A stretch of DNA of 64,000 nt from an uncultured Pseudomonadaceae bacterium (GCA_937876625.1 CALEGN010000311.1:3454-67453), one strand, 5' to 3'; counted from the stretch's first letter, positions 13,731-32,873 are shown. Notes: generated from the letters alone by a model not told the origin. A program made the numbers and translations.

Positions 13731-13783
13731 TAGCCTGTATCCGCTATGTTGAGGTCATCGACACAGGGGGTGCAGGCTTTCTC

Positions 13784-14287: not shown

Positions 14288-14347
14288 GCATATGGCTTGC
14301 ATATGCCCTTGCATGCAGCTACATTGTGCATATGTCGAACATATGCC
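14288..14347. promoter_or_regulatory. Candidate vapBC promoter/operator with reiterated GCATATG / CATATGC motifs
   Basis: GCATATG at 14288, 14299 (as the palindrome GCATATGC) and 14328, plus the inverted copy CATATGC at 14340. All lie within 75 nt upstream of the vapB ATG. Confidence 0.35.
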
Positions 14348-14360
14348 GGAGTCGCAAGTA

Positions 14361-14998: not shown

Positions 14999-15181
14999 GA
15001 GGAAAACCTCGATGAAGCTCGAAAAGATGACACTTTATTTGTATGTCAACTGGCGAGCCTGCCGTCCTGAGCACACTCACCTAGCATTAGGATGAGACTT
15101 TAGGTGCAGATTGAGGTGTAAGGCTCCCAGCCAGCCCAGCAAACTCATTCGCACCGGATGCAACTTTATTTGCATCCCACA

Positions 15182-15787: not shown

Positions 15788-17861
15788 TCAGGTGTTCCGG
15801 ATAGGAGAACTGCGAAAGCGCCTGCTGTGGTCCGGCACCGAGCAGGCCATCTGGATCGATATCGATTCGGACACGGCGTTGCCCGAGCCGATATCGGTTG
15901 CAGAGCTGGAGCGTCTGCTCATGGAGCGGGAGCTGGAGAGCATTGTCGATCCCTTCGAGGAGACAGTCCTACGGGAGGCTGTGGAAGATTCTCTTGATCA
16001 GCAGAAGCGTGATGAGGCTTGGGCAATGGTGGCGGATTTTGTGCACGATCCCCAGCTTTTCGTGCGGCGTCCCAGAGGACTCATTGTCAGAGGCATCATG
16101 GAGCGCCATGGTGTTACCAAGCAGACGGTGTATAGGTTACTGAGGCGCTACTGGCAGCGAGGCATGTGCAGGAACGCCCTCTTGCCGGACTATGTCAACT
16201 CGGGCGCCCGTGGCAAGCGCAGAAAGCCGAGCCAGGCCAAGCTGGGCAGGCCCCGAGTGGTGATGGAGGGGAAAGGGAGCAATGTCACGCCGGACATCGA
16301 GCGCATTTTTCGTCGGGTCATCGAGGAGCGCTTGCTCAAGGAAAAACATCCGTCCATTCCGGATGCCTACGCCTCCGGGCTGAACCTGCTCCGTGCTGTT
16401 CTGTCGCAACTACCGACCTCAGAACTGCCTACATTGGGGCAGTTCCGTTACTTCTATGGGCGCGAGTATCACTTCACCGACACCTTGCCATGCAGGGTGT
16501 CCGCAGTGGATTTTGCCAAGGACTTCCGGCCGCTCAGCAGCACATCAACGACCGAGGCACTTGGGCCTGGATACCGCTACCAGATAGATGCCACCATCGC
16601 CGATATCTATCTGGTTTCAGAACATGATCGCAGCCTTATCGTCGGCAGGCCTGTCGTTTACATGGTGATCGACGTGTTCAGCCGCATGGTCGTTGGCATG
16701 TACGTCGGATTCGAGGGGCCTTCCTGGGTCAGTGCCATGGTGGCATTGGCCAACACGGTCGCCGACAAGGTTGAGTATTGCCGCCAGTATGGCGTGGAGA
16801 TCGATGCCAGCGACTGGCCGGTCAAAGGCTTGCCGGATGTGGTGCTGGCCGATAAGGGCGAACTGAATGGCACCAAGGTGGAAGCATTTTCCCAAGCCTT
16901 CGGCGTTCGCATCGAGAATGCACCGGCCAAGCGAGGAGATGCCAAGGGGATCGTCGAGCGTTATTTCCGGACGGTGCAGGAGCGTTTCAAACCCTATGCC
17001 AGCGGAGTGGTCGAGGACACTACCAGCCGGAAGCGGGGTGGCCACGACTACAGGCTTGATGCCAGCCTGACCTTGCCTGAATTTACCCAGATCATCATCG
17101 CCGGCATCCTCCACCACAACAACTTTCACACCTTGAGCAAATACGACAGGACCTCTGGTATGCCGGGCGATCTGCCAGCCATTCCGGTCATGCTGTGGAA
17201 CTGGGGCTTGGCTAACCTGACCGGTCGGCTACGTACTGCGCCCGAGGAGCTAGTGCGGATCAATCTTTTGCCCCATGAGTCGGCCACGGTTTCGGAACTG
17301 GGAATCAGGCTGTTCGGCTGCTTCTACAGCTGTCAGGAAGCAATCAGGGAGGGGTGGTTCCACCGAGGTCAGGGGCGCCGGCCTACAGGGGTAACGGTCG
17401 CATACGATCCGCGTAGCGCCGACCACATCTACCTGCGGCCGTCCAATAGCCTCAAGGACTACTGGGTTTGCGATCTTGCCGATCGTAGTCGGCGCTTCAG
17501 GGGGATGACCTTCTGGGATGTCTGGCTGCTGTCCAGAGAGGAACGACGTAGCGATACCAAGGCAGCTGCACAAGCTTTGGTAGAGAAGGGTAATCTTCTG
17601 AAGCAGATCGAGTCCATCATTGCCCAGGCAGAGGATGCAAGTCCGGTAAAAACGGGTATGACCAAGAAGGATCTGGGAACCCAGATCCGCGAGAACAAGC
17701 AGCAGGAAAAGCGCCAGGAACGCCAGAAAACAGCATTCAAACCGGAGAAAATACAGCAGGAAAAGCCGGCGGAGGTGATCCCATTGCGGGGAGAGAAGCA
17801 GGAAGACTATGCCTTCCCGGGTCTTAGCGACCTGATATTCAAGGAGGAAGAGGATGACTGA
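15774..17861 (+). CDS. tnsB: Tn7 transposase TnsB (DDE, Mu/retroviral-integrase superfamily)
   Basis: VTKQTVYRLLRRYWQRGMCRNALLPDY, YQIDATIADIYLV, VIDVFSRM, LADKGEL, RGDAKGIVERYFRT. Collinear with Tn7 TnsB. GTG start at 15774 overlaps the tnsA end; exact start uncertain. Confidence 0.95.
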   Translation: MLPVNQVFRIGELRKRLLWSGTEQAIWIDIDSDTALPEPISVAELERLLMERELESIVDPFEETVLREAVEDSLDQQKRDEAWAMVADFVHDPQLFVRRPRGLIVRGIMERHGVTKQTVYRLLRRYWQRGMCRNALLPDYVNSGARGKRRKPSQAKLGRPRVVMEGKGSNVTPDIERIFRRVIEERLLKEKHPSIPDAYASGLNLLRAVLSQLPTSELPTLGQFRYFYGREYHFTDTLPCRVSAVDFAKDFRPLSSTSTTEALGPGYRYQIDATIADIYLVSEHDRSLIVGRPVVYMVIDVFSRMVVGMYVGFEGPSWVSAMVALANTVADKVEYCRQYGVEIDASDWPVKGLPDVVLADKGELNGTKVEAFSQAFGVRIENAPAKRGDAKGIVERYFRTVQERFKPYASGVVEDTTSRKRGGHDYRLDASLTLPEFTQIIIAGILHHNNFHTLSKYDRTSGMPGDLPAIPVMLWNWGLANLTGRLRTAPEELVRINLLPHESATVSELGIRLFGCFYSCQEAIREGWFHRGQGRRPTGVTVAYDPRSADHIYLRPSNSLKDYWVCDLADRSRRFRGMTFWDVWLLSREERRSDTKAAAQALVEKGNLLKQIESIIAQAEDASPVKTGMTKKDLGTQIRENKQQEKRQERQKTAFKPEKIQQEKPAEVIPLRGEKQEDYAFPGLSDLIFKEEEDD

Positions 17862-19464
17862 AGGATTCCCGCGCGCAGTTATTCCCCTGGCGCGTTACCA
17901 AGAGCAGCAGCTTCCCGAGTATCAGGACAATCCGCTCATCAGCGCATTGCCTCCGATTCCTGATTTGCAGGAGGTAGTCGGTCTATTGCAGCAGCTTCCC
18001 GGTTTTGAGCCGCAGGAGGCGCATCTGGATGGTCGGCTCAGGGCTCATGCGATTGCCCGTCTGTTGCATGGTTTCTTCCAGCCGCTGAGCCATCACTTGG
18101 AGCTGGAAAGCAAGATCAGCCTGATGATCCGTCAGGGGTACATCGGTCGGAATCCGGCCAGCGGTGCCTGGTATGCGCATCTGCAGAATGGCTATCGTCG
18201 TGTCGAGGAGGAGGATCTGGATGCGGCGGTGTACCAGAGTGTCTCTTCTACGGCCAACAGTCTATCGCTGTTCGGTTGTTCCGGTTGCGGCAAGACGCGC
18301 ACGCTGGAGCGGATCCTGGGTATGTATCCCCAAGCTCTCCATCACCCTGAATACAACATCACTCAATTGGTCTACCTGAAGGTCGACTGTCCCATTGACG
18401 GTGACCTAGATGAACTGTGTCTGAGCTTCTTCAACGAAGCAGACAAAATACTGGGCACCCACTACAGCCGTAGCCACGGACGCAAGAAGCTGGGTACTAA
18501 ACGTCTGCTGGCATCCATGTGCCAGGTAGCCAATCTGCACGCGCTCGGAGTGCTGATCATCGACGAGGTTCAGAACCTCAACGAGGCACGCTCCGGTGGT
18601 GCCGAGAAAATGCACAATTTCTTCGTGTCGCTGGTGAACACCATAGGTGTTCCGATCATTCAGGTTGGCACCCACCGGGCCAGTAAGTTCTTCCAGCGTA
18701 CTTTCCGGGCTGCTCGGCGGGTCTCCGGGCTGGGTAGCATCCGCTGGGATAGATTGCCTCAGGACGAGCACTGGAGGCGTCTGTTGAAGCGGCTCTGGAA
18801 GTATCAGTGGCTGCGAAATGCGGCGCCGCTGGATGACGAACTAGAGGCGACCATGTACGACCTCACTCAAGGGGTCATGGACATCGTCATCAAGCTGTTC
18901 GCGCTGGCTCAGATTCGGGCAATAGTGACAGGGATCGAGTGCATCAAGCCGCTGTTGCTGCGCAGGGTTTTCGAGGACGAGTTCAAGCCGGTCCATCCGA
19001 TGCTGGCGGCTTTGCGGAGTGGTAGACCTGAACTGATCGCCAAGTATGACGACCTGCTGATGCCTGAGATCGAGGGACGGTTGCTGACCCTGACGCGCTC
19101 ACTGGATCACGTCGCTCAATCGAAGCCGCCGGCCCCTCCGGCTGATGACAAGGCGAAGCGGCTGGCAACTCTGCTCGAAGATATGGAAATCCCGAGGGAC
19201 ATCGCCATTCCCATGGCCGATGAATTGCTGACGGAAAATCCGGACATCCCGTTGGCAGTCCTGATTCATAAGGCCACGGCCTACCTCGCGCAGGACGCTC
19301 CCAAGAGGCCTGGAATTTCCAGGGTTAAGCGTACGCAGTGGGGGTGTTTATCCGAGGAGGATCTGCGTCGACGTTATGCCGATGGGCCTGAGAGCGAGGC
19401 CTATGAAAGATTCAAGCAGGCTGGCCTGATCTTCGATCTGCGACCTCTGCTGAGGGCAAGCTGA
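17854..19464 (+). CDS. tnsC: Tn7 AAA+ regulator TnsC
   Basis: Walker A GCSGCGKTRT, Walker B LIIDEVQNL, and NPLISALPP, MIRQGYIGRNP, VHPMLAALRSG, all collinear with Tn7 TnsC. 8-nt overlap with tnsB. Confidence 0.95.
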   Translation: MTEGFPRAVIPLARYQEQQLPEYQDNPLISALPPIPDLQEVVGLLQQLPGFEPQEAHLDGRLRAHAIARLLHGFFQPLSHHLELESKISLMIRQGYIGRNPASGAWYAHLQNGYRRVEEEDLDAAVYQSVSSTANSLSLFGCSGCGKTRTLERILGMYPQALHHPEYNITQLVYLKVDCPIDGDLDELCLSFFNEADKILGTHYSRSHGRKKLGTKRLLASMCQVANLHALGVLIIDEVQNLNEARSGGAEKMHNFFVSLVNTIGVPIIQVGTHRASKFFQRTFRAARRVSGLGSIRWDRLPQDEHWRRLLKRLWKYQWLRNAAPLDDELEATMYDLTQGVMDIVIKLFALAQIRAIVTGIECIKPLLLRRVFEDEFKPVHPMLAALRSGRPELIAKYDDLLMPEIEGRLLTLTRSLDHVAQSKPPAPPADDKAKRLATLLEDMEIPRDIAIPMADELLTENPDIPLAVLIHKATAYLAQDAPKRPGISRVKRTQWGCLSEEDLRRRYADGPESEAYERFKQAGLIFDLRPLLRAS

Positions 19465-19465
19465 C

Positions 19466-20964
19466 ATGTACTTCCCCAGGCTCTACCCGGACGAACTGCT
19501 CTACAGCGGTATTGCCCGGTGTCGAGTACATCTGGGGATTGGCAAGCACAAGACTTTGCTGCACATGCTTTTCGGTGACAGCAAGGTTGCCGCGATCACC
19601 GATCTGCCAACACACCTGACAGCTCTGGCGAACAATACTGGTCTTGACCCAACAAACGTGATCAAGAATCACACTCTGTTCCCGCTCTATGCCCCTTTCA
19701 TTCCGCCGGAGCGCCGTACCGATCTTTTTCAGGCCATGCTAGCTCCCAACCGGACGACGATTGGCCTGTCAGGGGCATCGACGGCCTTGGTCAAATGGCC
19801 CGAGTGGCTGCGTTACTGCCCGGTTTGCTTCGAGGGCATGGCGGCTCGTTTTGGTGAGCCCTACTGGCGGCGTAGCTGGCAGATCCAAGGGATAGATGCC
19901 TGTGCAGAGCATGGCTGTCAGCTCCTGAACTCACCCATCCCATTCCGTCGAGCGCAGCGGCATGAGTTTCATCCAGCCTCTCCACTGTTTCTGCCTCGTG
20001 ATCTTCGCGTGACCCCCGCGGGCGAAGAGGCTATCAGGCTCGCCAAGGCTGCTATGCAGTTGCTGGCGCTCGAAGAGGTGCAATCGCCTACGGGTGCTGG
20101 ACCAACCTGTACCGGTACCTGGCTACAGAGTGTGGCGCCAGGCGCGGCCGACAGGTCAGGGCTGAAGTCATTTGGGAGAAGGTCTTGGCATCCAATCGCA
20201 GGGATTGGCTTGCTGCTAACGGTCTGCTGACATCCGGAGAGTGTCCACCTTGGCTGTTTGCGATGTTCAGGAAGCATCGCAAGGGATTCAGTGCTCTGCA
20301 GCATCTGATTGTCTGGACCAGCCTGCGCCCTGGTCAGCATGTTGGCTCGCTGATCAGTGAAGCGAATACTCACCAGATCGACCTTGCCTCCGAGCGGTCA
20401 GTGCAGATGCTCCCTGCTGAGTTTGAGCATAAGCAGCAATACCGAACCATTTGGCTGCGAGCACTGGCTTATCACGGTGGAGCCAAAGCAGCCAGGCAAG
20501 ACGGAGCAGGGGCATGTTATGCCTAGCTTTATCGTCATGACCGACATTGGTTGATGGTTACGAACCAGGTCAGGCAGCACCGACAGGGCAACAACAGCCA
20601 CATCGACTGGGGAGCGCGCGACAGAAGGTTGGTGCGCCTGCTGATCCGGATTGGCAGAGGTAGTGAAGAAGACCTGGGCTTTCCGCGCAGGAGCCGCAAC
20701 TGGTTCCTGCAGCAGCTACCCCATCGGGCATCAGTTGAGCACCATCTCGGTCAACTGCCTCTGTGCCGCGCTTTCCTGGATCGCTATGCCGAGTCTGTCG
20801 GCGAGTATCAGATCCGTCGCCTGACTGCAGCGATGCTGGAGGATGTACAGACAGGCATAACGTCCAGGCGCTGGGAGCTGGAAAAGCGTTGTGGATTGGA
20901 AAAAAGCAGGATGGTACCGCTGACCACTGCGTTCGTTAGATTGATAGGAAGATGGATTGAATAG
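19466..20964 (+). pseudogene. tnsD: tnsD (TniQ-family attTn7 target selector), inactivated by one frameshift and one amber codon
   Basis: N-terminal TniQ domain with CPVC...CAEHGC. The frame switches near 20085-20092 (…EEVQSP | AYGCWTNLYRYLATECG…). TAG at 20524-20526 interrupts …CYA*LYRHDRHWL…, where Tn7 TnsD has YAWLYRHDRDWL. Total span is 1499 nt, one short of a multiple of 3. Confidence 0.85.
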
Positions 20965-22579
20965 GACTGTATTTCGTCAGATCCCGAACGGATCCAAATT
21001 ACTGGCCGTTGGAAATTTTTTCAGGGCCCCGACTCCGACAGCCGAGTGGCGCTTGGCGGCTCTCTTTGAGCGTAACGGTCAGTTGCAGCTGCAGCAGTTC
21101 GCAAAGGAGATGTCGTGTGTCTTGGCTGTTGGTCGCGAGTTTCTTGGAGACGAAGGGCCTCCCTACCGTCCTAGTGGTTTCAAGAAGACCGTGGTGCTTC
21201 CTGCAATAGATACCTGGCGGGAGCGGCAGTTGGGTGAGTGTCCACGTCTGGCCAGAAAGCTTGCTGCAAATCCTGAGATATCAGGACAGCGATGCTTTGT
21301 GTTTGAGGTCGATGGTCTGACCGTCTGGTTGCCGAAATTCGAGCTGGCGCGAAAAATGTTCTTCCACGCAGCCTTTATCGTGCGTGCAGCCTTCGAACCG
21401 AATGGCTTGGACATGGCCTTCACGCTCTACAGAGAGGACGATGTTGTTCATATCCATACGCCCGCGAAGACAGGTGCACCAAGTCAGCTTCTCAAAATCA
21501 GGGGATACCGAGACCATTTCAGTTGGCTGCTGCTGAATCAGGATGTGAAGCGATCCTTCGAGTCAATCTGGCAAAGCCTCAACCAAGGGCAGGAGCGGGT
21601 ACCGCAAGGTTCGGCGTATGCCAGGTGGCAGTTCGACTTTCAGGCACCCCCTTCCCTCGCGGGTACCTCCATGGATGTACGAGGTCCCTTTGATCCGGAA
21701 AGCAACGAATTGCTGGTCTGGGAGATCGAAAAGCTTCAGGGGCTCCGGTTTACCCATCGTGGCGATGTTTTTTTCCACCACCCTGCTCTCAAGTTACCAG
21801 TCAGGGGGGAAAAAACAGACTGTGTATCTGTGCCATCGGGAGCTGAAGAAGTGGAGGTGGATGCTGATGAAGAGCCAACGGCTGCCAAGGAGCAGAGGTT
21901 GATTCATCTGCCCGTTGAGGGAGTTACGTTTGATGCTCAGATGCGCACCAAGATCGCCTACAGCGGGGAGCGTGCCAACGGTCATGGCAAGATGGTCGAC
22001 GATGAGCAATGCCCGAGCAGAGAAAGCCAACTCTTCGGCGTGGCTGATCCTGTGAGCGAGGGCAGCATAGCGTCAGGAGAATTCCAACAATTGGGTGAGG
22101 GAGAGGGTGATGGGGACGAGCATGAACGGCTTGCAGATCGCTTCTCGCTGCTCCGAGAGATTCTTGAACAAATCACCCAAGAGTCTGGAGTTGCGCTGGT
22201 AGCACTGGAAGTGAGGCCTCTGCCGCCCGTTCCACGTTGCAGCTACCACATGATCGATCACGAAAAATCACGCTGTTATCTGCTGGCAAGGTTCAAGCTG
22301 CAAAACGGCGATCAACGCTACCTTCTAGAAATAGATACCTCAGACAACCGGAAGACCATGTCAACGCGGATCATGGGCTTCAAAGCAGGTGTTGAGGCAG
22401 GAAAATGCATAGACAGGATCTTGAGGGAGACAGTGAAAGGCTCGTTGCGTTGGCCAGGCACCATGGCGAAGTACTGTGAGCCTTTGCACTCTGTGCATCA
22501 CCCGAAAGAAAGCTCATCTGGGGCCAACCATACCAGGGTGTTCGACTGGAAGCAGCGCATACGCGCTGCCCTGAGCTGA
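20957..22579 (+). CDS. tnsE: TnsE (alternative target selector)
   Basis: FELARKMFF, SWLLLNQDVKRSFESIW, WQFDFQAPP, YLLEIDTSDNRKTMSTRI and GSLRWP...HHPK parallel Tn7 TnsE (LELARSLFL, VWLFSDQDVMDSYESIF, FSFDPPP, VLLEVDASDGVKMLSTKV, SSLNWP...NHPK). 540 aa against 538 aa in Tn7. TTG start per the track. Confidence 0.85.
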   Translation: MNRTVFRQIPNGSKLLAVGNFFRAPTPTAEWRLAALFERNGQLQLQQFAKEMSCVLAVGREFLGDEGPPYRPSGFKKTVVLPAIDTWRERQLGECPRLARKLAANPEISGQRCFVFEVDGLTVWLPKFELARKMFFHAAFIVRAAFEPNGLDMAFTLYREDDVVHIHTPAKTGAPSQLLKIRGYRDHFSWLLLNQDVKRSFESIWQSLNQGQERVPQGSAYARWQFDFQAPPSLAGTSMDVRGPFDPESNELLVWEIEKLQGLRFTHRGDVFFHHPALKLPVRGEKTDCVSVPSGAEEVEVDADEEPTAAKEQRLIHLPVEGVTFDAQMRTKIAYSGERANGHGKMVDDEQCPSRESQLFGVADPVSEGSIASGEFQQLGEGEGDGDEHERLADRFSLLREILEQITQESGVALVALEVRPLPPVPRCSYHMIDHEKSRCYLLARFKLQNGDQRYLLEIDTSDNRKTMSTRIMGFKAGVEAGKCIDRILRETVKGSLRWPGTMAKYCEPLHSVHHPKESSSGANHTRVFDWKQRIRAALS

Positions 22580-22795
22580 TCGCAATGTGCGCCGCAGTTC
22601 GGCTGCGACACAACTTGTCGCGAGCTGTGTGTAGCCTCATCGGGACTTACTGGCGCCGTGCCCTGGCGATGTAGGCACGGCTGGCCACTGGCTCCCGCTT
22701 GGTCGAGAGGTTAAGGTTCTCCACCTATCAAGATATCCAGCAGGGACGCGGCGTTCAGGCGCTCTCCCGGCCTCTGTACACAGGGAGAAGATGGC

Positions 22796-25700
22796 ATGGG
22801 CAAGAAGTCCCGAGAGAAGCGGGAGCGGAGGCTTGCACGAATGGAGGCCGACCATGGCCTTCTGTTGCAGGAGATGCTCGGGTTTCACGGGAAAATCGCT
22901 TACGAGAAAGATCAGGGACATTCATTTCGTAAGCGTCTCGAGGCGACCCGTGCGTTACTTCGCCAATATGAGCGTCTCGACGCAGCGATTGCCTTGAGTG
23001 TCTCCGAGCTATGGCTGGCCAATGCTGGAAGCCCTATCAAGCATATTTTCGCCTGGGGTGTTCTGCTAGATCTTCCGCACGATGACCAAGGCGGGATGCC
23101 AATCGCTAGCTATGCAGATTTCAAAGCGTTTGCAGAGGCACTGTACGAGGCATGGCCCGAGTTCCCGATGCTTGAGGACTTCTCCTCCGAGGCCGACTGG
23201 GGTGAAACCAAAGTACGCCTTGGCCAAGCTTTCGTTCCGATGTTCTACGGTAGCTGCATTGAGCGCACACCTGACTTCGTAGAGGCATTTCGCATCACTT
23301 ACGCACAGGTTCCAGAGGCACAAGCCCACATGGACCTCGCCATCGCATTGCAAGCACGGATCATCGAGTCGATGCTCGACCTGGGGGGCGCCCCCGCTGG
23401 GGAATCACAGCAAGCCCACGTCGAGGTGCCTCCCGAGGACTTTTGGCTGGCTTGTAGGTTAACGCTTCAGCAAATCGGTACCGATATTGCCGACTGGCGA
23501 GACAAGGCAAGGGGAGCACTCGATACTCGCTTTGGTGCTTTCAAAGCGCCGCTGACATGGCGCGCTTTCGGCGATGCGGTAATGCAGGGGGTGGCCCTCC
23601 CCTTTCTAGCGGTCGAAAGCGACGGCACCTGGGTGCCTATGTCGGCTCGTAACGCTCCTGGAGTCGTTGTTGACCATTGGGCCAACAACGCAATGGTTGA
23701 GGTCGGCGCTCATACGCATCGCAGGCTTGCCCTGTTCGTTGCCGAGCGATTTCCAAGGACGGTCGTGGGGCCTCTGGCGCTCGTCATTGGTGGCTCCATC
23801 TGTGAAGAGCTCCCTATCAGTTGCGTCATCTCAGCCAACTCTGGTGTGTATCTCATTTGCGCATGTGACCACGCATCGAATGAGCGGCTGTCAATCGCAG
23901 CGAAAGACGTGTACGGCAAAGTGAGGCGCGGCGCGCCGATCCACTTCCGTCTCGCAGACGGGCGCGGACTCATGTTATCTAAAGATGGAACCAATGGACC
24001 TAGTGCAGATGAGCTTCGAATAGTCATTGTGGTCACCCAAGCCGGCACTGCATTGGGCTCCATATCTGCGCCCGAGCGGCCCGCGCGCCTACTGCCGTTA
24101 GCGGACTTCATTACCATCTTCGACAGTTTGAGTGATCTCGACGAATTGGAGTGCTACTGGGAGTTCGTCGACTCTCAGAGAGGCTCTCTTAGCCTCTTCT
24201 CGAGCGGGCCTGCCGACTTGTATGCGTCATTCAAGGACACAAATGGCGTACTTGTCGAAGGGGCGATTTCCCCCACTCTTATCGGACTGGATCCTCACTG
24301 GGGCACTTCTTGGCGCTTCAAGGCACTTGCTGACTTCTGGTCGCGTGCACCAAGCGTTTTTCCTGATGGCTCTGTGGGCTGGCGGCTGAGCAATGGAACT
24401 AAAGGTGTCGTTGATCTCCAATCGCGCCATCACAAGGCAGTGGCATACTCAACATCTGTCGGCAGCTGCACAATTCAAACCCTGGTGGAAATCTCTGAAG
24501 GTCTGGGAATCGAGGATGCCCGCATGCTCGACCTCTTCGCCCAACTCCTTGCGGATTGCACCTATCGTTGCCGTGAGCTGATGTCGGACATCCCGCTGTT
24601 TCGGCAGCAGCATGTCCTGTTCATCTGTGGGCTCGCCCACTCTAGCTCTGTTGGCAATGATGAAGCTCCTCAGCCAATAGAGGGATTCGAGCGGGCAGTA
24701 ATTTCAGCGGAAGAGGATGCAGCTCGTAAGAGCATATTGCATCTGCAGGTCGACGCTCGTGCAGTGCTTGCAGGCCTAAACGCGGCCAAAGACGGCTCGT
24801 TCGAAGTTCGATGCTTACTGGAGACACTCGAAAGGTGTCACGACGTGTGTGGGCTGGAGTTGCCCATCGGTTTTGGAGAGCGGCTACGTGGCAGAGCATC
24901 GGAGCCGGCTCGCTACCACTTGAGGGTCGCTGCCCGAAACGTTGATGTCCCTGACTACGTGGAACCCGTAATCCCCTCGCCCGCTAACTACAAGCTTGCT
25001 CGCAAGCATTTGGCGGCCGAAATCATGGCGCTCGATTTGGCTCCAGGGCGCTATGAGCTTTCCGATGCCAAGGCAAGAATTGATCCTGCTGGCGCTCGTT
25101 TGCGTCTTCACATCGAGAATCGGCTGGCATCGCTCGACAGGTACCAACTTCTCCGGGCTTTCATTGAGCAGCACGATGCGCTTCTTGTAACCGAGAGGAT
25201 GAAGATTCAGCGCACCCGTCAGAGCCTAGCTCATGATGTGGACTACGACAGGCTAGAGGCCATTGAACAAGCCCGCAAAGACTACGGCTCCGTAGCTCGT
25301 CACTACCGATACCTACTGGAGAAAACTGTTAGCTCGCCGGCAACCGGTACTGAGGACGCCACTGACGATGTACTGCGTGAGCTGGTTGGCCTGGTTGACT
25401 GGTACATGGTGCTTACAGGGGCCAGCGACGTCCTTCACAACGGCATCGACGTTGGTGGCGTTGAGATTGACGACTCGTACATTCCAGAGGTCTTCTACTC
25501 GACTGGAGCCGATGACCGTGAGGCGGAATTTGCACGCGAGTATGCGAAATCAAGGCTAGGGCTTGGTGCAAACAGCGAAGATGCTGTGGAGGGTGCATCG
25601 GAGGACTTGCTGTCTTCAGAGAAGTTCAAGAGTGCTTTTGCAGCTGACGTGGGGTTTGACCTGCAAAATCTAGTCACTGCTCTCGCAGTTTTGTCACAAG

Positions 25701-26593
25701 CGCAAAGGTACGGGTTTGGCGATGAGCTCTCGCTATCTTATGCCGCTTCTCCAAGCCGCGTCGCGCAAGGACTGGCCGACAGCATTGAGATGCTTGATTT
25801 TGCCGAGGCGGAAAGGATAGTGACGTTCCTCACTCTTTCGGAGCAAGGCGTTCGCAGGCTGTCCGGAAGGAGTGTCGACGAGATCGATGTTCCTTACTGG
25901 GAGCACAGTAAGCGAATCCATCGATACGCGATCAGGCCGCTGGTTGTCGATGGCACAAACTTGCGTTGGGGAGCAGAGACGGTCAGTCGGTCGATGTACA
26001 ACTGGATGTCAGCAGTGCGGGACGGCTACCTCCCTGCGGACTTCGATTGGCCCCATGTCCAACCAGTCATACGGGAGGTCAAGGAGAGTATCGAGAATCG
26101 GCTGGAGCTCCGCACCGAGGAGATATTCCTTCGGCACACTCCATTCGTTCATCGAGGCATCGACTTTTTCCGGAAGTTCCGCAGCGAGGGGTTCGAGGAC
26201 GTCGGGGACTTCGACGTATTCGCTTATTGGCCAGATGCGAACCTACTCGTGACCGTGGAGTGCAAGTACAACCAGCCGCCCTACACAGTGAAAGATGGCC
26301 GTCGACTCCGTGACCGAATATTCGGCAAAGCTGAGGACGACAAGGCTGGGCAGTTCAGTCGAATTCTTCGCCGAAGGCAGTTTCTCGAGAAAAACCGCGC
26401 AAGGACGCTTGAGCTGTTGAAGTGGCCGAAGTCGGAGGCCAAGCCTTTCCGGCATGTGGAGCTCTACGTGAGCCGTGACGTGTACTACTGGATGGTTCAT
26501 CCGCCGTACCCTGTTCCGACCAAGTTCGTGCGAGTGGACACACTGGATACCTGGATCAAGACCGAGCTCATCACGTCTCGCCCCCATGTCTGA
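22796..26593 (+). CDS. Cargo gene A: 1265-aa uncharacterised protein with a C-terminal PD-(D/E)xK-like nuclease motif
   Basis: GGGAGA (22783-22788) lies 7 nt before ATG 22796. No P-loop seen. Near the C-terminus, GDFDVFAYWPDANLLVTVECKYNQ (about 26204-26275) fits a D...E-x-K restriction-endonuclease-like core. The rest is not recognisable to me. Confidence 0.85.
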   Translation: MGKKSREKRERRLARMEADHGLLLQEMLGFHGKIAYEKDQGHSFRKRLEATRALLRQYERLDAAIALSVSELWLANAGSPIKHIFAWGVLLDLPHDDQGGMPIASYADFKAFAEALYEAWPEFPMLEDFSSEADWGETKVRLGQAFVPMFYGSCIERTPDFVEAFRITYAQVPEAQAHMDLAIALQARIIESMLDLGGAPAGESQQAHVEVPPEDFWLACRLTLQQIGTDIADWRDKARGALDTRFGAFKAPLTWRAFGDAVMQGVALPFLAVESDGTWVPMSARNAPGVVVDHWANNAMVEVGAHTHRRLALFVAERFPRTVVGPLALVIGGSICEELPISCVISANSGVYLICACDHASNERLSIAAKDVYGKVRRGAPIHFRLADGRGLMLSKDGTNGPSADELRIVIVVTQAGTALGSISAPERPARLLPLADFITIFDSLSDLDELECYWEFVDSQRGSLSLFSSGPADLYASFKDTNGVLVEGAISPTLIGLDPHWGTSWRFKALADFWSRAPSVFPDGSVGWRLSNGTKGVVDLQSRHHKAVAYSTSVGSCTIQTLVEISEGLGIEDARMLDLFAQLLADCTYRCRELMSDIPLFRQQHVLFICGLAHSSSVGNDEAPQPIEGFERAVISAEEDAARKSILHLQVDARAVLAGLNAAKDGSFEVRCLLETLERCHDVCGLELPIGFGERLRGRASEPARYHLRVAARNVDVPDYVEPVIPSPANYKLARKHLAAEIMALDLAPGRYELSDAKARIDPAGARLRLHIENRLASLDRYQLLRAFIEQHDALLVTERMKIQRTRQSLAHDVDYDRLEAIEQARKDYGSVARHYRYLLEKTVSSPATGTEDATDDVLRELVGLVDWYMVLTGASDVLHNGIDVGGVEIDDSYIPEVFYSTGADDREAEFAREYAKSRLGLGANSEDAVEGASEDLLSSEKFKSAFAADVGFDLQNLVTALAVLSQAQRYGFGDELSLSYAASPSRVAQGLADSIEMLDFAEAERIVTFLTLSEQGVRRLSGRSVDEIDVPYWEHSKRIHRYAIRPLVVDGTNLRWGAETVSRSMYNWMSAVRDGYLPADFDWPHVQPVIREVKESIENRLELRTEEIFLRHTPFVHRGIDFFRKFRSEGFEDVGDFDVFAYWPDANLLVTVECKYNQPPYTVKDGRRLRDRIFGKAEDDKAGQFSRILRRRQFLEKNRARTLELLKWPKSEAKPFRHVELYVSRDVYYWMVHPPYPVPTKFVRVDTLDTWIKTELITSRPHV

Positions 26594-29500
26594 GAACATC
26601 AAGAACACTGCAATCACTGCAGCCGGCTACATTTACCAGAATCGGCAGGGCCTCAAGGTTCTATGCGATTGGCTCGACGCGCCGGCTCGCTACAGTCGGG
26701 TGAAATTCGAGTGCGACGACGAAACAGAAGCGCCGCAGGGGCTGGACGATCTCGTCATCGAGCGGAGTGATGGCCTCGTTGACCTTCAGCAGGTCAAATT
26801 CACCCCGAATCCTGAGGCACATCCTCTTTCCTGGGATTGGATGCTCGAGAAGTCCGGCAAGACCGACCGGTCGAGGTCGATGCTTCGTAAGTGGTTCGAC
26901 GCTTTCAAGAAGCTCGATCCCGCGCGCATTGGCGAGCTCTCGCTCACAACAAACCGCCGGCCGGATGCCGCCATTGAGGCCTGTTTGGATGCTGGCAGGA
27001 TTTCCTTCGCCAAGATCCCTGAGCCACAGCGCTCGGAGGTCATCGCAGAGATTGGCAGCGCAGAAGAGTGCGAGGTTTTCTTCAGCCAGTTGCGCATCCG
27101 GCACAGCGACAAGGGATACGTTGCGCTGGAGCACGAAGTCGCTTCGCGCCTTCGGCTGCATGGCACCGCTGAAGGTATCGCGAACCTCAAGGTCGTGGCC
27201 CTGAACTGGGCAACGCAGAAGAGTCTCCCGGCTCCTGATGGCTGGATCACTCTGGAAGAGGTTCGTGCCATCCTCAGGGCGTTGCCGCCTGCGCCTCTGC
27301 CAGAGGACTTTGTGGTCCCGAAGGGGTACGAGGTGCCCGATGCGACGTTCCACGAGGAGTTCGTCCGGGACGCGATCAATGCTGCTGGCAAGGCGATCGT
27401 TCTGACGGGACCGCCCGGCCGTGGAAAGAGCACTTATCTGAGCGCGCTGTGCGACTCTCTCGCCGAACAAGGCATCCCGACGGTCCGCCATCACTACTTT
27501 CTCTCGACGACAGAGCGTGGGCGTGACCGGGTGAACAGCTACGTGATCGAGCAATCCATCAGCGCGCAGGTCGAGCAGTTTCACGAGGGCGTCGCGAGGG
27601 GGCCTGGGGGGCTGCGTGTGCTCCTGGAGGCGAGCGCCTCCCACTACAAGGGGCTGGGCAAGCCCTTCGTGCTCGTCCTAGATGGTTTGGATCACGTCTG
27701 GCGCATCAACGCTCACGACAAGCGGCCGTTGGACGACCTTTTTTCCCAACTGATCCCTTGCCCGGACAACATGGTACTGCTCGTCGGCACTCAACCTGTG
27801 GATGACGCCCAGTTGCCGACGGATCTGCTCGCCTCAGCTCCGAAGGTCGAGTGGCGCACGTTGCCCGCGATGTCTGAGAACGCAGTCCTTTCCTTCCTTC
27901 GTAGGGCGGTTAAAGAGGGCAGGCTCACGACAGGCTGCGAGAATGAGAGACAGGCTGAAGAACAACTACAAGATGCAGCATCCGCGCTCCGCTCAAGAAC
28001 CAATGGCCACCCCCTTCATGTTATTTACGCGGCTGCAGAGCTAGAGCATGCAGGGCGAAATCTGTCCCGCTGGGATGTTGAGAAGTTGAAAGGGGATCTG
28101 AGCCAAGATGCCAAGTTCTACTATGCATCGTTGTGGGAGAGGCTTCCACCAAGCCTGAAGGACGTGCTGCGGCTCGTCTGCGCCTTCCCGTTTTTCTGGC
28201 CGAAAACTGCGTTTTCTGAGATAGCTTCTGCAATCAAGATGACGGTGCCCGAAGTTGGGAGCGTGGAGCATCTGCTTCATTCATCAGCAGCAGGACTGAA
28301 GGTCTTCCACGAGAGTCTGGCGGTCTTCGTGCGCTCGACAGCAGACTACGAAGCACGTATCACGGAGCTGATGCCAGTGGTCGCGCGCTGGCTCGAGTGC
28401 TCTGCTCCCACCTCGCTACGCGTCAACTGGCTATGGACGGTTCAAGCGAAGCTGGGTGCCCCCAAGAACCTCATCACGGGGCTCACCCGTGACTGGATCA
28501 TGCTGCGGCTTGAGGAAGGGTACCCAGAGTCGTTGTTTGACACCTTGCTATCAGATGCCTTGGTTGCAGCGCTCCAGACTGCCGAATTCGCAGATGCTTA
28601 TCGTCTGCTGCATCTCAAGGCCCGGATGGTTGGTGGCAGCGAGTACCAGATGCAGAGCGACGATCTGGCCAGGCTCATCTCCTTCACGTTGACGCTAGCT
28701 GTGGAGGAAGGCGTAGTACGTGAGGCCGTTGCCTCCAGACATGAGACTGACATCCTGCACGTTGCCGCGCTTGGGCTGGCCCTGCGCGCTCGTGGGGACC
28801 AGATTTTTGCTGAAACATGCGGTGAAGAGGCGCTTCGTCGGTTCAGGGGCTTGAGCCGATTCTCCAGCAGATACGTGTCGGGCACTGGAGCTGATGAGCT
28901 CAAGTTCCTAGTCGACGCATTCGCTCGACTTGGCGCCATCGGTGCCACTCCTGAGTCGCTCGCCAGGTTGGTGGTTGATAACAGCCCGGTCGTTTGGCTG
29001 CCTCGTGTCCAGATGCTGGTAGAGGAGGGCAACCTGGATGACTTGATGACGGTTGTTGCTTCGCTTTCCAGAGGGGAGAGAAAGAACATCATTAGTGATG
29101 CCTGTGTACGTGCGGCAGCGAAGGCGGGAGTAAGTATTGCAGAGCGCGATGACTTCAACGAGCTTGCCCGAACTCCCTTTGTTGCTGCCGTGGAGGCGGT
29201 GCTCACACGTTCCTCCAAACCGCTGAATGAGCCGATCCCTGTGGAGTGGCTGAAGGGCGACTACTCCGAGCGCAAGGAAGATCTGGCGGCACTCGCGCAC
29301 CACTGGTTCTTCAGCGCTGTGCATCTGGGTCTGTGCATGGCCGCAGAGGGCCAGACTGCCTTCGAGTATGCGCGAGCCCCAATCTATGAAGGCAGAGAAA
29401 ATATAACCGGCTTCCTCGATGCGCTCTCTGATGTCGCTGCCCAAGTTGCGCTTCGCTGGTGGCGCGGAGAGTTTGTGGATTTCCATGAGCTTTTCGCGCT

Positions 29501-31010
29501 GCTTGAGCCAGTAGAGTTCCGATGGTTCAGGCAGAGCCATGACTGGAGTTGGGCGGCTGATGATTTCAGACGGGCATTGCCTTGCATCGCTTGTGACATC
29601 TACCTCGGTAGCACCTTGCTGAAGGGGTGTGATGATGTAGATATGACTGCGGAAACCATGCATGCAGCAGGCCAGTGTGTCTGGTTTGACGGAGCATCAT
29701 TCTGCGCTCAGTACGCAGCCAGCACACTTACTCGAATGACCGACGAAGCGGCTGCGATGCTTGTTCAGTCGCAACGATCATTATTTGATGAGGACGTTGA
29801 GGAGGAGACCAGTGTTCGCCTCCAGACGCCGTTGCAGCTTTGCGCGATTGCGCTGGCTCACAATTTGATGCCGGAAGCGCGAGAACTCTGTAAGCAGACT
29901 TGGGAGTTAACTACCGGCTTTGCACACCGTAAAGACCCGTCGCTGAACAACACAGTTAACGCAATCGGCTACCTGGTAGACGTTGCGCCAGCGGATGCCT
30001 GCCGGTTGCTCGGTATGATCGCGCCGCAGATCCATCATGTTCTGAAGTACACGGATGGAAAGGGCACGCGTCATGTTCTGGCGCAGGCTGATCGGTTGCT
30101 GGCGAAGCTGAAGCCTGCGGCACTGGTAATCAAATATGAGGAGCACACGCACGAGGGCGACTGGTCGCTGGCAGAGGACAGTCTGCAAGCATACGTGGAG
30201 CAGGGGGTAAAGGAGGGTTGGTCTCTGGATGCACTGATGCGTACAGGGCTCCACTCTGGAATACAGGATACACTTCAGCAACTGGCTCAAGAAGGCAGTG
30301 CAATCGCTGCAAAGCAGCTCCAAGTTCTCCAAGAGTATGCCGGTTGGGATCTGGGTTTATTGAGGCATCAAGAGCGTTCTGGAAGTGGCCTAGATGGCAA
30401 GCCTTATGATGGCGACGTCACGACCTTTACGCCCGAACAACTGAATGAGCTGCTCGCTAGTTTGTCAGGGAGTAACTACGGCGAGCGCGATGAGCTTCTT
30501 CGTGCCTGGTATCTGCACTGGGAAGCTCAAGGCCAGGGCAGGAGATTACTCGGTACACTCGACGACCTGCTTCTCTCAGAAGAGGGACGGCAAAAGGACG
30601 TACTGGTCTTATCCGATCTTGCCTTCCACACTCGGCGCAGGCTGAGCGGAGTGAAAGCAGCATGGAAGTATCTTGTCCGTGCTCAGATCCTGAGCGGCGG
30701 GTGGATCGGTTATATGGAGCATGAGGCCAAGACCTGTAGCAGGCTTGACCTGGTTGTTAAGCACTATCCGACGCGCTGCGACGAGTTCGTTGTCGAGACA
30801 ACCTATGGCATGTTCAAGGACCCGGTGCCGTCGCGTGTCGCACCCAACGATGCGATGGTCTATTTCTATGTGCGGCAGGGGCGAACTGAGAAAGCCGTGA
30901 GGTTTGCAGAGACTATGGTCAATTGCATCATTGAGGATACTCGTACCCTCCCACTTGAGCCCCCTCGCTGGGCGACTGAGCTGGCCTTGCCCTCCATGTC
31001 GGAGGTTTGA
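26586..31010 (+). CDS. Cargo gene B: 1474-aa Cap4/DUF4297-like nuclease + STAND (NACHT-like) NTPase + long helical C-terminal region
   Basis: ATG 26586 overlaps the gene A stop (ATGTCTGA). N-terminus: AAGYIYQNRQG...VKFECDDE...DDLVIERSDGLVDLQQVKF (GYxYQ / E / DD / QxK pattern). Walker A LTGPPGRGKST (27408-27434). Walker B FVLVLDGLDHV (27666-27695). About 1100 further residues are helical with no obvious repeat family. Confidence 0.85.
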   Translation: MSENIKNTAITAAGYIYQNRQGLKVLCDWLDAPARYSRVKFECDDETEAPQGLDDLVIERSDGLVDLQQVKFTPNPEAHPLSWDWMLEKSGKTDRSRSMLRKWFDAFKKLDPARIGELSLTTNRRPDAAIEACLDAGRISFAKIPEPQRSEVIAEIGSAEECEVFFSQLRIRHSDKGYVALEHEVASRLRLHGTAEGIANLKVVALNWATQKSLPAPDGWITLEEVRAILRALPPAPLPEDFVVPKGYEVPDATFHEEFVRDAINAAGKAIVLTGPPGRGKSTYLSALCDSLAEQGIPTVRHHYFLSTTERGRDRVNSYVIEQSISAQVEQFHEGVARGPGGLRVLLEASASHYKGLGKPFVLVLDGLDHVWRINAHDKRPLDDLFSQLIPCPDNMVLLVGTQPVDDAQLPTDLLASAPKVEWRTLPAMSENAVLSFLRRAVKEGRLTTGCENERQAEEQLQDAASALRSRTNGHPLHVIYAAAELEHAGRNLSRWDVEKLKGDLSQDAKFYYASLWERLPPSLKDVLRLVCAFPFFWPKTAFSEIASAIKMTVPEVGSVEHLLHSSAAGLKVFHESLAVFVRSTADYEARITELMPVVARWLECSAPTSLRVNWLWTVQAKLGAPKNLITGLTRDWIMLRLEEGYPESLFDTLLSDALVAALQTAEFADAYRLLHLKARMVGGSEYQMQSDDLARLISFTLTLAVEEGVVREAVASRHETDILHVAALGLALRARGDQIFAETCGEEALRRFRGLSRFSSRYVSGTGADELKFLVDAFARLGAIGATPESLARLVVDNSPVVWLPRVQMLVEEGNLDDLMTVVASLSRGERKNIISDACVRAAAKAGVSIAERDDFNELARTPFVAAVEAVLTRSSKPLNEPIPVEWLKGDYSERKEDLAALAHHWFFSAVHLGLCMAAEGQTAFEYARAPIYEGRENITGFLDALSDVAAQVALRWWRGEFVDFHELFALLEPVEFRWFRQSHDWSWAADDFRRALPCIACDIYLGSTLLKGCDDVDMTAETMHAAGQCVWFDGASFCAQYAASTLTRMTDEAAAMLVQSQRSLFDEDVEEETSVRLQTPLQLCAIALAHNLMPEARELCKQTWELTTGFAHRKDPSLNNTVNAIGYLVDVAPADACRLLGMIAPQIHHVLKYTDGKGTRHVLAQADRLLAKLKPAALVIKYEEHTHEGDWSLAEDSLQAYVEQGVKEGWSLDALMRTGLHSGIQDTLQQLAQEGSAIAAKQLQVLQEYAGWDLGLLRHQERSGSGLDGKPYDGDVTTFTPEQLNELLASLSGSNYGERDELLRAWYLHWEAQGQGRRLLGTLDDLLLSEEGRQKDVLVLSDLAFHTRRRLSGVKAAWKYLVRAQILSGGWIGYMEHEAKTCSRLDLVVKHYPTRCDEFVVETTYGMFKDPVPSRVAPNDAMVYFYVRQGRTEKAVRFAETMVNCIIEDTRTLPLEPPRWATELALPSMSEV

Positions 31011-32452
31011 TGGACGAGCTTCGCATTCTTGTTGCCCGCCTCGGATGGCCTTCTACGTCCGCACGGTGGTGGGCTATGCAGGAGCTGGCGGCCTGGCTGG
31101 GCTTTCCTGCTATGCGGGCCGAAACTGAGGCTGCGTTGTTTCAGTTGTTGCGCTCGCGCAAGCTTGAAGCCGAGGTTATCGAAGCTCTCTGCATCTTCTG
31201 GATGGCAGCACAGGGACATGGCTACTCACCTGCACTAGAGCTTGCCGATAGCATCCCGAAGCCATCCCTGCTTTCAGACTTGCTTGTGGCGGATCTTGGG
31301 CTGCCGATTCAGGCTGGCGATATGGGCTTGAAGGAGGTGCCTCATGACTTTGTAGTTCCAGATGACTTCGATGGTGTGCAAGGCGTCGATTTGCCAAGAA
31401 TTTTCCATACGTCCATGAGCAGGCTCGAGCACTATTCTGGACTTCCTTTCGTCCGGCAGATGGCTTTTGAGTGGACTGAGAATCGAGCAGCTTATCCAGA
31501 TGTGCCATACCAAGGGGACATGCGGCACTTCACGCTACCACTCGGTAACGGTTTTAGTGTCCATCTTTCTGCGCGCGCAGCCCTTCGCGCCATTTCTGCG
31601 TACCTTCGTACTCTGGCAGTGGCAAGGCAGTTTTGGGAAATGCCGACAGGATTGGCTCATGAAGAGTCGCTTTTGGCCCTGCCGCTCCATCCGACTCTGG
31701 CTTTACTTAGGCCGCAGCGCCCGGACTGGTTCCCAGCATCGAGAGGGCTCGATGGGGATGCTGAGTCAGTCGAAGCTGCAATTCGAGCACTCCCTGCTCG
31801 TATTGGGGCAGTTCGTCCGGGTGACGAGCTCATCGCTTTCAGCTCGCCAATCGTGATATCTGAGGAACGATGTGTAGAGGTTTCCCTCGTGCGGTGGTCG
31901 CAGGCTGCTGGTAGTAGCGTTAACGATGCGGATTTGGCTGCGTATCTCGATGCTTTCTGGATGCGTGGGCCGATGTTCTCCAGCGCAGCGTCAGATCCTC
32001 TCAATACAATCACCATGGTAGTTCCAGCAGCTCTCGAACGACTGATGGATGACAGCTGCCAGGCTTGGCCTTTGGCTGGAGCGCTCGGCTACGAGCGGAT
32101 GGGATATCTCCAGCATGATTTATATCCATCGCGGCTCTTCTTCCCGACGATGTCTGGTTTGCATGAGCTTGAGATCACACCTCGTGATGGGCAGCTAGAA
32201 GTCAAGGTAGAGGGTCAGGTTGTTGCTGATCTTTGCTATTGGAACGCAGGGTGGGGGCCAGCACGACCAAGGCAGCTTGGTGGAAATTGTGGGACGGCAC
32301 TCACCTCTCGAGGCACGGCCTACCGCGAGGGAGCTGGTTCTGAAAAAGGACCGCTGCGCGCGTTCTATCTTTGGCAGGTGCGTACGCTGCACCGTAGCAG
32401 CAGCTTTGGCGAGTTCAGCGAAACACTAGCGACTGGCGCAATATTCGTTTAG
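31010..32452 (+). CDS. Cargo gene C: 480-aa uncharacterised protein
   Basis: ATG 31010 shares one nt with the gene B stop (TGATG). Uninterrupted 480 codons in the same compositional regime as A and B. No motif I can assign. Confidence 0.8.
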   Translation: MDELRILVARLGWPSTSARWWAMQELAAWLGFPAMRAETEAALFQLLRSRKLEAEVIEALCIFWMAAQGHGYSPALELADSIPKPSLLSDLLVADLGLPIQAGDMGLKEVPHDFVVPDDFDGVQGVDLPRIFHTSMSRLEHYSGLPFVRQMAFEWTENRAAYPDVPYQGDMRHFTLPLGNGFSVHLSARAALRAISAYLRTLAVARQFWEMPTGLAHEESLLALPLHPTLALLRPQRPDWFPASRGLDGDAESVEAAIRALPARIGAVRPGDELIAFSSPIVISEERCVEVSLVRWSQAAGSSVNDADLAAYLDAFWMRGPMFSSAASDPLNTITMVVPAALERLMDDSCQAWPLAGALGYERMGYLQHDLYPSRLFFPTMSGLHELEITPRDGQLEVKVEGQVVADLCYWNAGWGPARPRQLGGNCGTALTSRGTAYREGAGSEKGPLRAFYLWQVRTLHRSSSFGEFSETLATGAIFV

Positions 32453-32648
32453 TTCGCTCGCTGTAGGCTGATAACGCCGAGCCGCATCGCCACCTGGAGT
32501 TCGGCACGCATCGATCAGGCGGCCATCGTGGGGGCAGATAGTGGAGATCGAGACAGGCAATATTGATCTTACTTGTACGTTTTTAGAGGAAGGGGGTTTT
32601 ACGCTATCCCCCTGCTCCCAAGGGCTCGGAAGCTGCCTGGTCATTAAT

Positions 32649-32868
32649 AGGATGAAACTTTATTTTCACGATTTTCGGCGTTGACCGAAAATCAGGATGG
32701 TACTTTAACGCCTTTGATCGTCACCCCGGCAAAGGCGCGGTGAAGTACCTGATCATGCTTTTTAGTCGTGTAAGTCATTGTTTTTAAACATTTGTCTGAG
32801 GATTAAACGCTCATCGTGATTCCCCATCTGCTCCCAGCGTTAGGATGAGATTTTATTTTCATCCCACA
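32649..32868 (-). repeat. Tn7-type left end with dispersed TnsB-site repeats
   Basis: AGGATGAAACTTTATTTTCA (32649-32668), degenerate AGGATGGTACTTTAACGCC (32694-32712), and terminal AGGATGAGATTTTATTTTCATCCCACA (32842-32868). Three spaced sites are typical of a Tn7L-type end. Confidence 0.8.
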
Positions 32869-32873
32869 ACTGT

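Follow-up and report, generated by a model that had tools for sequence, protein, structure and literature searches.

Within a 64,000-nucleotide stretch of DNA from an uncultured Pseudomonadaceae bacterium (GCA_937876625.1 CALEGN010000311.1:3454-67453; hereafter the window), a Tn7-like transposon downstream of glmS carries three closely packed genes, here called genes A, B and C. Gene A (22796..26593, + strand) encodes a 1265-amino-acid protein very probably related to the defence protein Upx by remote homology over its full length. Open reading frame (ORF) calling, an AlphaFold 2 model, Foldseek, a family profile and hhalign together describe it as a divergent Upx-family protein consisting of a putative sensor and a PD-(D/E)xK nuclease. 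We consider it likely that gene A acts as an autonomous, single-polypeptide anti-phage protein with a terminase-type trigger, highly divergent within the Upx family, and that it is stacked with an Avs-like module formed by genes B and C.

The AlphaFold 2 model covers residues 66-1265 of gene A and was built from 107 homologues, with a mean predicted local distance difference test score (pLDDT) of 81.9 and a predicted template modelling score (pTM) of 0.71. Foldseek comparison of this model to the PDB identified the cryo-electron microscopy structure of Upx (9wuf; E 8.3e-27, probability 1.00, TM-scores 0.53/0.52) in an alignment of 1361 columns with 13% identity. This was the sole match at E ≤ 0.001, the next having an E-value of 0.12. 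Gene A is predicted to adopt the Upx fold over its whole length, and the full three-domain architecture of the Upx structure, an N-terminal domain (NTD), a middle domain (MD) and a C-terminal domain (CTD), is present in the model. The initial annotation, made from the sequence alone, had described a body of roughly 1100 residues without a nameable family; that description is superseded, since the whole protein matches Upx.

The relationship is also detected by sequence profiles. A profile search of 1.84 billion cluster representatives (50% identity) returned 630 gene A relatives, 262 of them at E ≤ 1e-30, and nearly all full-length relatives among the matches listed are ~1200-1300 amino acids long. 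With hmmsearch, a profile of 75 diverse family members (19-58% identity to gene A) reached 9wuf_A at E 1.1e-15, aligning profile positions 727-1213 to chain residues 734-1234. With hhalign, the gene A family was aligned to a set of proteins of the type of SeUpx, the Salmonella enterica Upx (SQI81149.1; structure 9wuf; models NF042954 and PDLC02221), with a probability of 99.45% (E 4.9e-22) across 738 columns spanning gene A residues ~469-1256. At the profile level, these alignments show that the middle and C-terminal domains of gene A are homologous to those of Upx, and the matches are colinear.

The link to Upx is significant only when the profile includes distant representatives. A profile restricted to close homologues (at least 59% identity) reaches 9wuf_A only at E = 1, and a phmmer search of the PDB with the single gene A sequence gave only noise. 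Weak, colinear matches to Upx hidden Markov models (HMMs) recur in gene A and several of its relatives, and the more distant relatives score slightly better (E 2e-5, 6e-4 and 1.5e-4), a pattern that fits a continuum of divergence. All 120 listed homologues of gene A are named 'hypothetical' and have no Pfam domain recorded; the precomputed family PF28173, which is found on SeUpx-like proteins, is not recorded on any of them. Since the curated Upx HMMs miss gene A, annotation pipelines call it hypothetical. Judged by these models, gene A would fall outside Upx in the narrow sense, and it does not qualify as a SeUpx 'equivalog'.

The C-terminal domain of gene A (roughly residues 708-1265; 24917..26590, +), homologous to the Upx CTD by hmmsearch and hhalign, includes a PD-(D/E)xK nuclease core at residues ~1088-1259 (26057..26572, +) that matches the SeUpx core at 1121-1272 (PMC13099982). 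Secondary structure assigned to the model by DSSP (positions given as model numbering + 65) comprises a helix at 1088-1112, strands at 1118-1122, 1139-1145 and 1150-1156, a helix at 1165-1176, and a strand at 1219-1226. This alpha-beta-beta-beta-alpha-beta topology fits the order typical of the PD-(D/E)xK superfamily. The catalytic motif GDFDVFAYWPDANLLVTVECKYNQ (residues 1137-1160; 26204..26275, +), identified from sequence, conservation and the Upx alignment, contains D1138/D1140 and E1155-C-K1157. In the model, D1138/D1140 lie at the strand 1139-1145, E1155 lies in the strand 1150-1156, and K1157 lies just past that strand.

Among the 75 family members, which are as little as 19% identical to gene A, D1140 shows no variation, and conservation is at least 90% at D1138, E1155 and K1157. 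The profile alignment places D1140/E1155/K1157 of gene A onto D1161/E1176/K1178 of SeUpx, with GDFDVFAY...VECK of gene A aligned to GDIDLLAW...VIECK. In SeUpx these three residues belong to the canonical PD-(D/E)xK site, and mutation of E1176/K1178 abolishes defence (PMC13099982; PMC13601566). Because the D/E/K residues are conserved in diverse members and aligned with validated Upx residues, the motif is no chance match. The model indicates that gene A ends in a restriction-endonuclease-like core. The initial annotation had proposed such a core from an E...D...ExK arrangement that begins at LRTEEIF (residues 1105-1111; nucleotides 26108-26128); its motif coordinates proved exact, and both the model topology and the homology to the Upx CTD bear the proposal out. 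The endonuclease fold is present in the predicted structure, and gene A belongs neither to a housekeeping family nor to a transposon-maintenance family.

The ORF of gene A opens with an ATG, and direct reading of the sequence shows a Shine-Dalgarno-like GGGAG (22783..22787, +) 8 nt 5' of it. A regular-expression search over the full length of the protein found neither [AG]xxxxGK[ST] nor any GK[ST], and a Pfam scan returned 0 families, with no AAA, NACHT or Tns domain. The ORF and its lack of an NTPase motif are therefore as originally annotated, and the absence of a Walker A motif rules out gene A as a P-loop enzyme or STAND NTPase. Its first 15 residues form a basic peptide, MGKKSREKRERRLAR (22796..22840, +), with 8 K/R and 2 D/E, in agreement with the strongly basic N-terminus noted at the outset. 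This peptide is almost unchanged across the clade of close homologues and is not kept in the consensus of distant family members.

Residues ~66-707 (22991..24916, +) form a mixed alpha/beta body, as judged by model secondary structure and Foldseek, which by analogy would correspond to the Upx NTD (sensor) and MD. The domain borders given here for gene A are approximate, having been carried over from SeUpx (NTD 1-515, MD 516-714, CTD 715-1272; PMC13099982). A near-invariant acidic motif, LEDFSPEADWG, occupies residues 126-136, with E127, D128, D134, W135 and G136 conserved. The E127/D128/E132/D134 cluster lies at a position similar to that of the non-canonical exonuclease residues proposed for the SeUpx N-terminus (D122, D127, R129, E147 and D173), a likeness of position only.

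Downstream, the gene A stop codon (TGA, 26591-26593) overlaps the gene B start (ATG at 26586) by 8 nt (ATGTCTGA), an overlap that had been reported correctly; a longer ORF call, starting with a GTG at 26475, extends gene B in the upstream direction. Gene B (26586..31010, +; Pfam and PADLOC) encodes a 1474-amino-acid STAND NTPase with an N-terminal Cap4/LmuA-like nuclease domain, a NACHT domain and a helical C-terminal region. Pfam reports NACHT at 2.2e-10; in PADLOC the best defence-family match is Avs1b (4.6e-9), and LmuA is matched at 9.4e-7. The Avs1b match is confined to the surroundings of the NTPase, and the NCBIfam score is 21.5 bits against a cut-off of 1500. As gene B has its own nuclease domain, the earlier suggestion that gene A is a second nuclease of the operon stands. 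Gene C (31010..32452, +) begins within the gene B stop codon, overlapping it by 1 nt (TGATG), and encodes 480 amino acids. Its structure model (pLDDT 75) has a helical repeat (1-270) followed by a beta-rich domain (273-479). The three genes are probably co-transcribed and translationally coupled. A consensus scan of 22300-33100 found neither a sigma-70-like promoter nor a convincing terminator.

Wherever a B-containing locus is long enough, gene B is accompanied by gene C, which appears to be the detached sensor piece of a split Avs1-like STAND protein. Structure comparison of the gene C model to the PDB gave no convincing match, including none to Avs3 (8dgc), and Pfam assigned no family; no PADLOC model matches the C-terminal half of gene B or any part of gene C even at E 10. 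An identity of gene C as the detached end of an Avs1- or Avs3-type sensor was therefore not confirmed by the PDB structure search or by PADLOC to E 10. In a Gallionellaceae metagenome-assembled genome (MAG; locus L029, 1973-7939), B and C form a single ORF of 1988 amino acids (B part 38-1508, C part 1512-1988). Such a fusion, seen only in this MAG, would support gene C as a detached STAND end; the alternative is a 1-nt error at the overlapping TGATG junction, in a contig with 0.84x coverage. NCBI gives many gene C homologues (including P0338, P0361, P0376, P0402 and P0414) the name 'multidrug DMT transporter permease' or 'DMT family permease'. A membrane permease was rejected for gene C, as the predicted fold is soluble and Pfam finds no family, and the names look like a propagated misannotation.

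To describe the distribution of the three genes, 77 genome loci with gene A relatives (30-98% identity) were searched with A, B and C, and neighbouring ORFs were clustered. B-C lies directly downstream of A in 17 of the 77, with spacings from overlap to ~20 nt, and the A proteins at these loci are at least 58% identical to gene A. At one further locus (L011) a partial B follows A with no C seen, and in Paracidovorax (1 of 77) B-C precedes a 38%-identity A relative, giving the order B-C-A. About 59 of the 77 loci are without B-C, and other neighbours are each common to at most six loci. The loci without B-C within 8 kb include those of close relatives at 83%, 72%, 71% and 64% identity. Next to stand-alone A relatives lie genes for Wadjet JetC/JetD, a Fic protein, integrases or TnsD, or else guaA. 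The B-C pair is in turn present with no A in Pseudomonas simiae and P. aeruginosa (next to Mokosh) and, alone, in Burkholderia cenocepacia. The initial annotation had proposed gene A as a dedicated partner of the STAND NTPase; with these counts the partnership is facultative.

Where the three genes occur together, they do so in different mobile elements. In Providencia, A-B-C is Tn7 cargo at glmS, and in Pectobacterium it neighbours HNH/McrA-like and helicase genes within a tyrosine-integrase island. In Morganella, a gene A relative follows tnsE within a Tn7-like element. Identities of A/B/C drop in parallel across loci (98/97/94, 81/78/70, 70/71/59 and 58/62/52), and this parallel fall marks the A-B-C linkage as tight and old. 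The association is also recurrent, given the Paracidovorax locus and a locus (L021, 12241-19778) with an Avs1b-like STAND protein. In the latter, a 59%-identity A relative is followed by an 823-amino-acid protein ending in a SEC-C motif and then by a 1588-amino-acid STAND protein, which lies 3.2 kb from the A relative and matches Avs1b at E 1.1e-24, a far stronger match than that of gene B. The locus represents another Upx-like/Avs1-like neighbourhood, distinct from the first.

Other loci showed further variation. In P. simiae (L006, 4061-5587), the slot 5' of B-C is held by an unrelated 508-amino-acid protein that belongs to no known family and overlaps the B start at its end; within it, an FDVV...VQCK stretch resembles a D...QxK nuclease motif, and Mokosh mkoA/mkoB lie just upstream. 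Four loci with A relatives of 31-34% identity (L065 (4091-7837), L067 and L077 from Enterobacterales, and L082 from a Lysobacterales MAG) share a conserved neighbour of 1248-1412 amino acids that ends 164-269 nt upstream. These neighbours were considered as a 'second Upx', which was not confirmed: A-family and Upx-family HMMs and PADLOC were all negative. A tblastn search of plasmids with gene A gave one remote match only, in Lactococcus. The matching protein (L089, 2942-5620; plasmid pFI430, NC_025249.1 38652-41330) is an 892-amino-acid hypothetical protein beside IS981 that is 21% identical to gene A over residues 716-1208 (E 3e-7). It may represent a Upx-like or Abi-like nuclease of Firmicutes that is either truncated or simply shorter.

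Upx is monomeric, with the nuclease in its CTD preceded by an NTD and a middle domain (PMC13099982), and SeUpx works as a single gene (PMC13099982, PMC13601566). It has been reported to sense the phage large terminase, a protein and not DNA, and divergent Upx homologues of only 16% identity are all activated by the large terminase ATPase domain (PMC13601566). The published data concern SeUpx, HpUpx and PbUpx, which respond to terminase ATPase domains in toxicity screens, and activated Upx shows ExK-dependent toxicity (PMC13601566). AlphaFold 3 models suggest that the N-terminal sensor may bind a locally unfolded ATPase domain via beta-augmentation (PMC13601566). The DNA-sensing role initially proposed for gene A does not agree with this work, which attributes terminase sensing to the large N-terminal domain on the basis of those models (PMC13601566).

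Gene A resembles SeUpx in length (1265 versus 1272 amino acids), overall fold, the D/E/K residues of the C-terminal core and the lack of an NTPase motif. Like Upx, members of its family are mostly stand-alone genes found in defence and mobile contexts. Unlike SeUpx, gene A has a conserved basic N-terminal peptide, and its clade is often in an operon with B-C. An association of Upx with split-TPR Avs1 has been noted in some cases (PMC13601566, section 9 and Fig. 4a; 2026), and the Avs1 family too is reported to sense terminase (PMC13601566). As in that association, gene A adjoins a STAND NTPase for which Avs1b is the top HMM match, and the C-terminal part of the STAND protein is encoded by a separate gene, C. 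Together, B and C comprise 1954 amino acids, compared to 1924-1931 positions in the Avs1b models. Because of the Avs1b match and the fit in length, the gene A clade is likely the one meant in the published association. The pairing with a STAND NTPase, considered unusual by the initial annotation, is less so given that report (PMC13601566, section 9). Avs1b of AVAST type 1 carries a protease, whereas gene B carries a Cap4/LmuA-like nuclease instead.

SeAvs3 (8dgc) is a functional analogy to the operon, being a large protein sensor with a PD-(D/E)xK-type nuclease and a conserved phage protein as trigger; unlike Avs proteins such as SeAvs3, gene A has no NTPase domain at all, and Foldseek of the gene A model against 8dgc gave noise (E 0.89). 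The match to Can2 (8q3z) is weak and not significant (E 0.13), covering only the small catalytic core. Against viral structures, Foldseek returned nothing significant, with viral PD-(D/E)xK proteins at E 0.3-1.4. Can2 and phage PD-(D/E)xK nucleases lack the ~1000-residue N-terminal and middle body of gene A.

Fold, homology, the conserved catalytic triad, operon structure and the mobile and defence context come from the present analysis, and the mechanism is drawn from the Upx literature. By analogy to Upx, the ATPase domain of the large terminase, produced late in infection, would bind the beta-rich N-terminal body of gene A. Binding would release the C-terminal nuclease, which would then degrade DNA, and the infection would abort. 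The Avs1-like B-C module would act alongside, with gene B providing a Cap4-like nuclease and NACHT domain and gene C an apparent detached sensor piece, and both stacked sensors are possibly directed at terminase. The simplest and most likely reading is that two autonomous modules, a single-gene Upx-like one and a two-gene Avs-like one, became linked in one clade and now travel together. Two stacked autonomous sensors are favoured because A and B-C are each found alone elsewhere.

Several points weigh against this assignment and mechanism. Identity between gene A and SeUpx is ~13%, and the curated models barely register gene A: NCBIfam NF042954 gives 12.6 bits (E 0.014) where its cut-off is 1900, in a weak but colinear match of residues 774-1157 to model positions 764-1150 of 1240, and PADLOC Upx (PDLC02221) gives E 0.016. 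At such a distance, simple transfer of Upx function to gene A would be unsafe. The first ~470 residues match Upx by fold only, with no alignment obtained at the sequence level; a search seeded with the SeUpx CTD gave partial proteins only, of at most 859 amino acids. The SeUpx trigger is itself disputed, being gp16 in one study (PMC13099982) and terminase in another (PMC13601566). Finally, the tight packing of A, B and C (8-nt overlap here, gaps of at most ~20 nt elsewhere) and their identities falling in step are compatible with functional dependence.

Such dependence would be complete if A, B and C were one obligate three-component system, with Upx-like A serving the STAND NTPase as its dedicated sensor or effector subunit. 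In one variant, oligomerisation of B-C would activate the gene A nuclease; in another, A would capture a phage protein for B-C. Consistent with this are the overlaps (8 nt for A/B, 1 nt for B/C), the order A-B-C kept with short gaps in 17 genomes and different mobile elements, and the parallel fall of identities, which implies inheritance as a unit. The 38%-identity relative that is again beside B-C in Paracidovorax, and the Avs1b-like STAND protein 3.2 kb from the 59%-identity relative, point the same way. However, most of the surveyed loci, including those of four close A relatives, have no B-C, and B-C stands alone in several genomes. A and B each have a complete nuclease domain and a large putative sensor of their own, and SeUpx is sufficient as a single gene (PMC13099982, PMC13601566). 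We therefore regard an obligate system as unlikely. A looser arrangement, in which Upx-like A and the split Avs1-like B-C form a cooperating composite of two structurally unrelated terminase sensors wired together, also seems doubtful to us, but in view of the tight, old and recurrent linkage we retain cooperation as a minority hypothesis. If it were true, one sensor would capture the unfolded terminase ATPase domain while the other reads its folded state or, alternatively, one would guard the other against phage inhibitors. Phage escape would then need the defeat of both, and this built-in redundancy or guarding would spread as a Tn7 cargo cassette.

The remaining explanations concern gene A by itself. 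It could be a DNA-directed enzyme of restriction-endonuclease or DNA-sensing type that recognises nucleic acid features directly instead of a phage protein, as might be expected from its PD-(D/E)xK core, its basic N-terminal peptide, the name 'Restriction endonuclease' under which 9wuf was deposited in the PDB, and the 3'-5' degradation of single-stranded DNA by purified SeUpx in vitro with no trigger needed (PMC13099982). We consider this very unlikely: no methyltransferase or specificity partner is among the conserved neighbours of A in the 77 loci, a ~1000-residue non-catalytic body is conserved, and SeUpx, HpUpx and PbUpx respond to terminase ATPase domains (PMC13601566). A role in the transposon itself (target choice, end processing or maintenance), with no defence function, could be read from the location of gene A directly after tnsE in the Tn7-like elements here, in Providencia and in Morganella. 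That position is a cargo position, and defence systems are abundant in Tn7-like cargo (PMC8649781); gene A is homologous to a validated defence protein, and its occurrence in tyrosine-integrase islands and other non-transposon contexts effectively refutes a transposon function, which we judge extremely improbable. Gene A was likewise rejected as a Tn7 core or maintenance gene, as it has no Tns domain in Pfam and occurs outside Tn7 elements.

Homology to Upx supplies both a name and a mechanism open to testing for a large 'hypothetical' family, comprising 630 cluster representatives at 50% identity, mostly from Proteobacteria. Pfam, PADLOC and NCBIfam all miss this family, and censuses of defence systems therefore undercount Upx-like genes. 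That the A-B-C cassette recurs in integrase islands as well as in Tn7 cargo at glmS documents how Upx-like genes spread. The cassette is also a natural test case for whether two immune sensors in one operon act independently or jointly. If B-C senses terminase as Avs1 does, a single essential phage protein would be watched by two unrelated sensors of the cassette. What is new here is the divergent Upx clade unrecognised by annotation tools; the Upx-Avs1 association is already in print, so the question of stacked versus cooperating sensors is only moderately novel. The result is of use for annotation, though specialists will not be surprised by it.

The Tn7-like transposon that carries these genes occupies 13665..32870 (strand not assigned) at attTn7, downstream of glmS, as defined by end repeats, Pfam and tblastn. 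The right end, TGTGGGATGTAAATAAAG, begins at 13665, 25 nt after the end of glmS (13639), and is followed by repeated TnsB-type sites; the inverted left end lies at 32841-32870. Between the ends are tnsA (interrupted), tnsB, tnsC, tnsD (frameshifted) and tnsE, followed by A, B and C. Identification of these genes is based on Pfam (glmS, TnsA and TnsE, and the TniB/TniQ/Mu-transposase-type domains of tnsC, tnsD and tnsB) and on tblastn. With a cut-off of 240 amino acids, the ORF list shows no intact, non-nested ORFs other than A, B and C between tnsE and the left end. GC content is 54-58% in the element, compared to 61-65% in glmS, glyQ and glyS.

The tnsA gene is split (13784-15739), with residues 1-80 encoded at 13784-14023 and residues 72-261 at 15173-15739. 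It is interrupted by an insertion of ~1.16 kb between inverted Tn7-type ends (14011-14036 and 15156-15181), which looks like a miniature Tn7-like element inside the transposase gene of the larger one. The insertion contains a PIN-domain ORF (14588-14998; Pfam PIN 8.8e-12), preceded by a 99-amino-acid ORF (14292-14591) that overlaps its start, and the two resemble a VapBC-type toxin-antitoxin pair in their arrangement. The tnsD gene (19466-20964) is apparently frameshifted near 20092-20098, with an N-terminal TniQ part at 19472-20092 and the remainder at 20098-20937 in the other frame. Since tnsD is frameshifted and tnsA interrupted, the element is probably no longer mobile by itself; the tnsD frameshift may be a sequencing error.

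At the left boundary, two Tn7-type ends stand back to back: TTTCATCCCACAAC closes the end at 32841-32870, and GTTGTGGGATGAAAATAAAGTTTCA follows at 32872-32896. The second points rightwards, toward glyQ, and may be what remains of the right end of an older element that a later attTn7 insertion displaced. The 361-amino-acid ORF containing glyQ (32880-33965) begins within this transposon-end repeat. Because Pfam matches GlyQ only from residue 57 onward, glyQ itself probably starts near 33040, which would make the N-terminal extension spurious.

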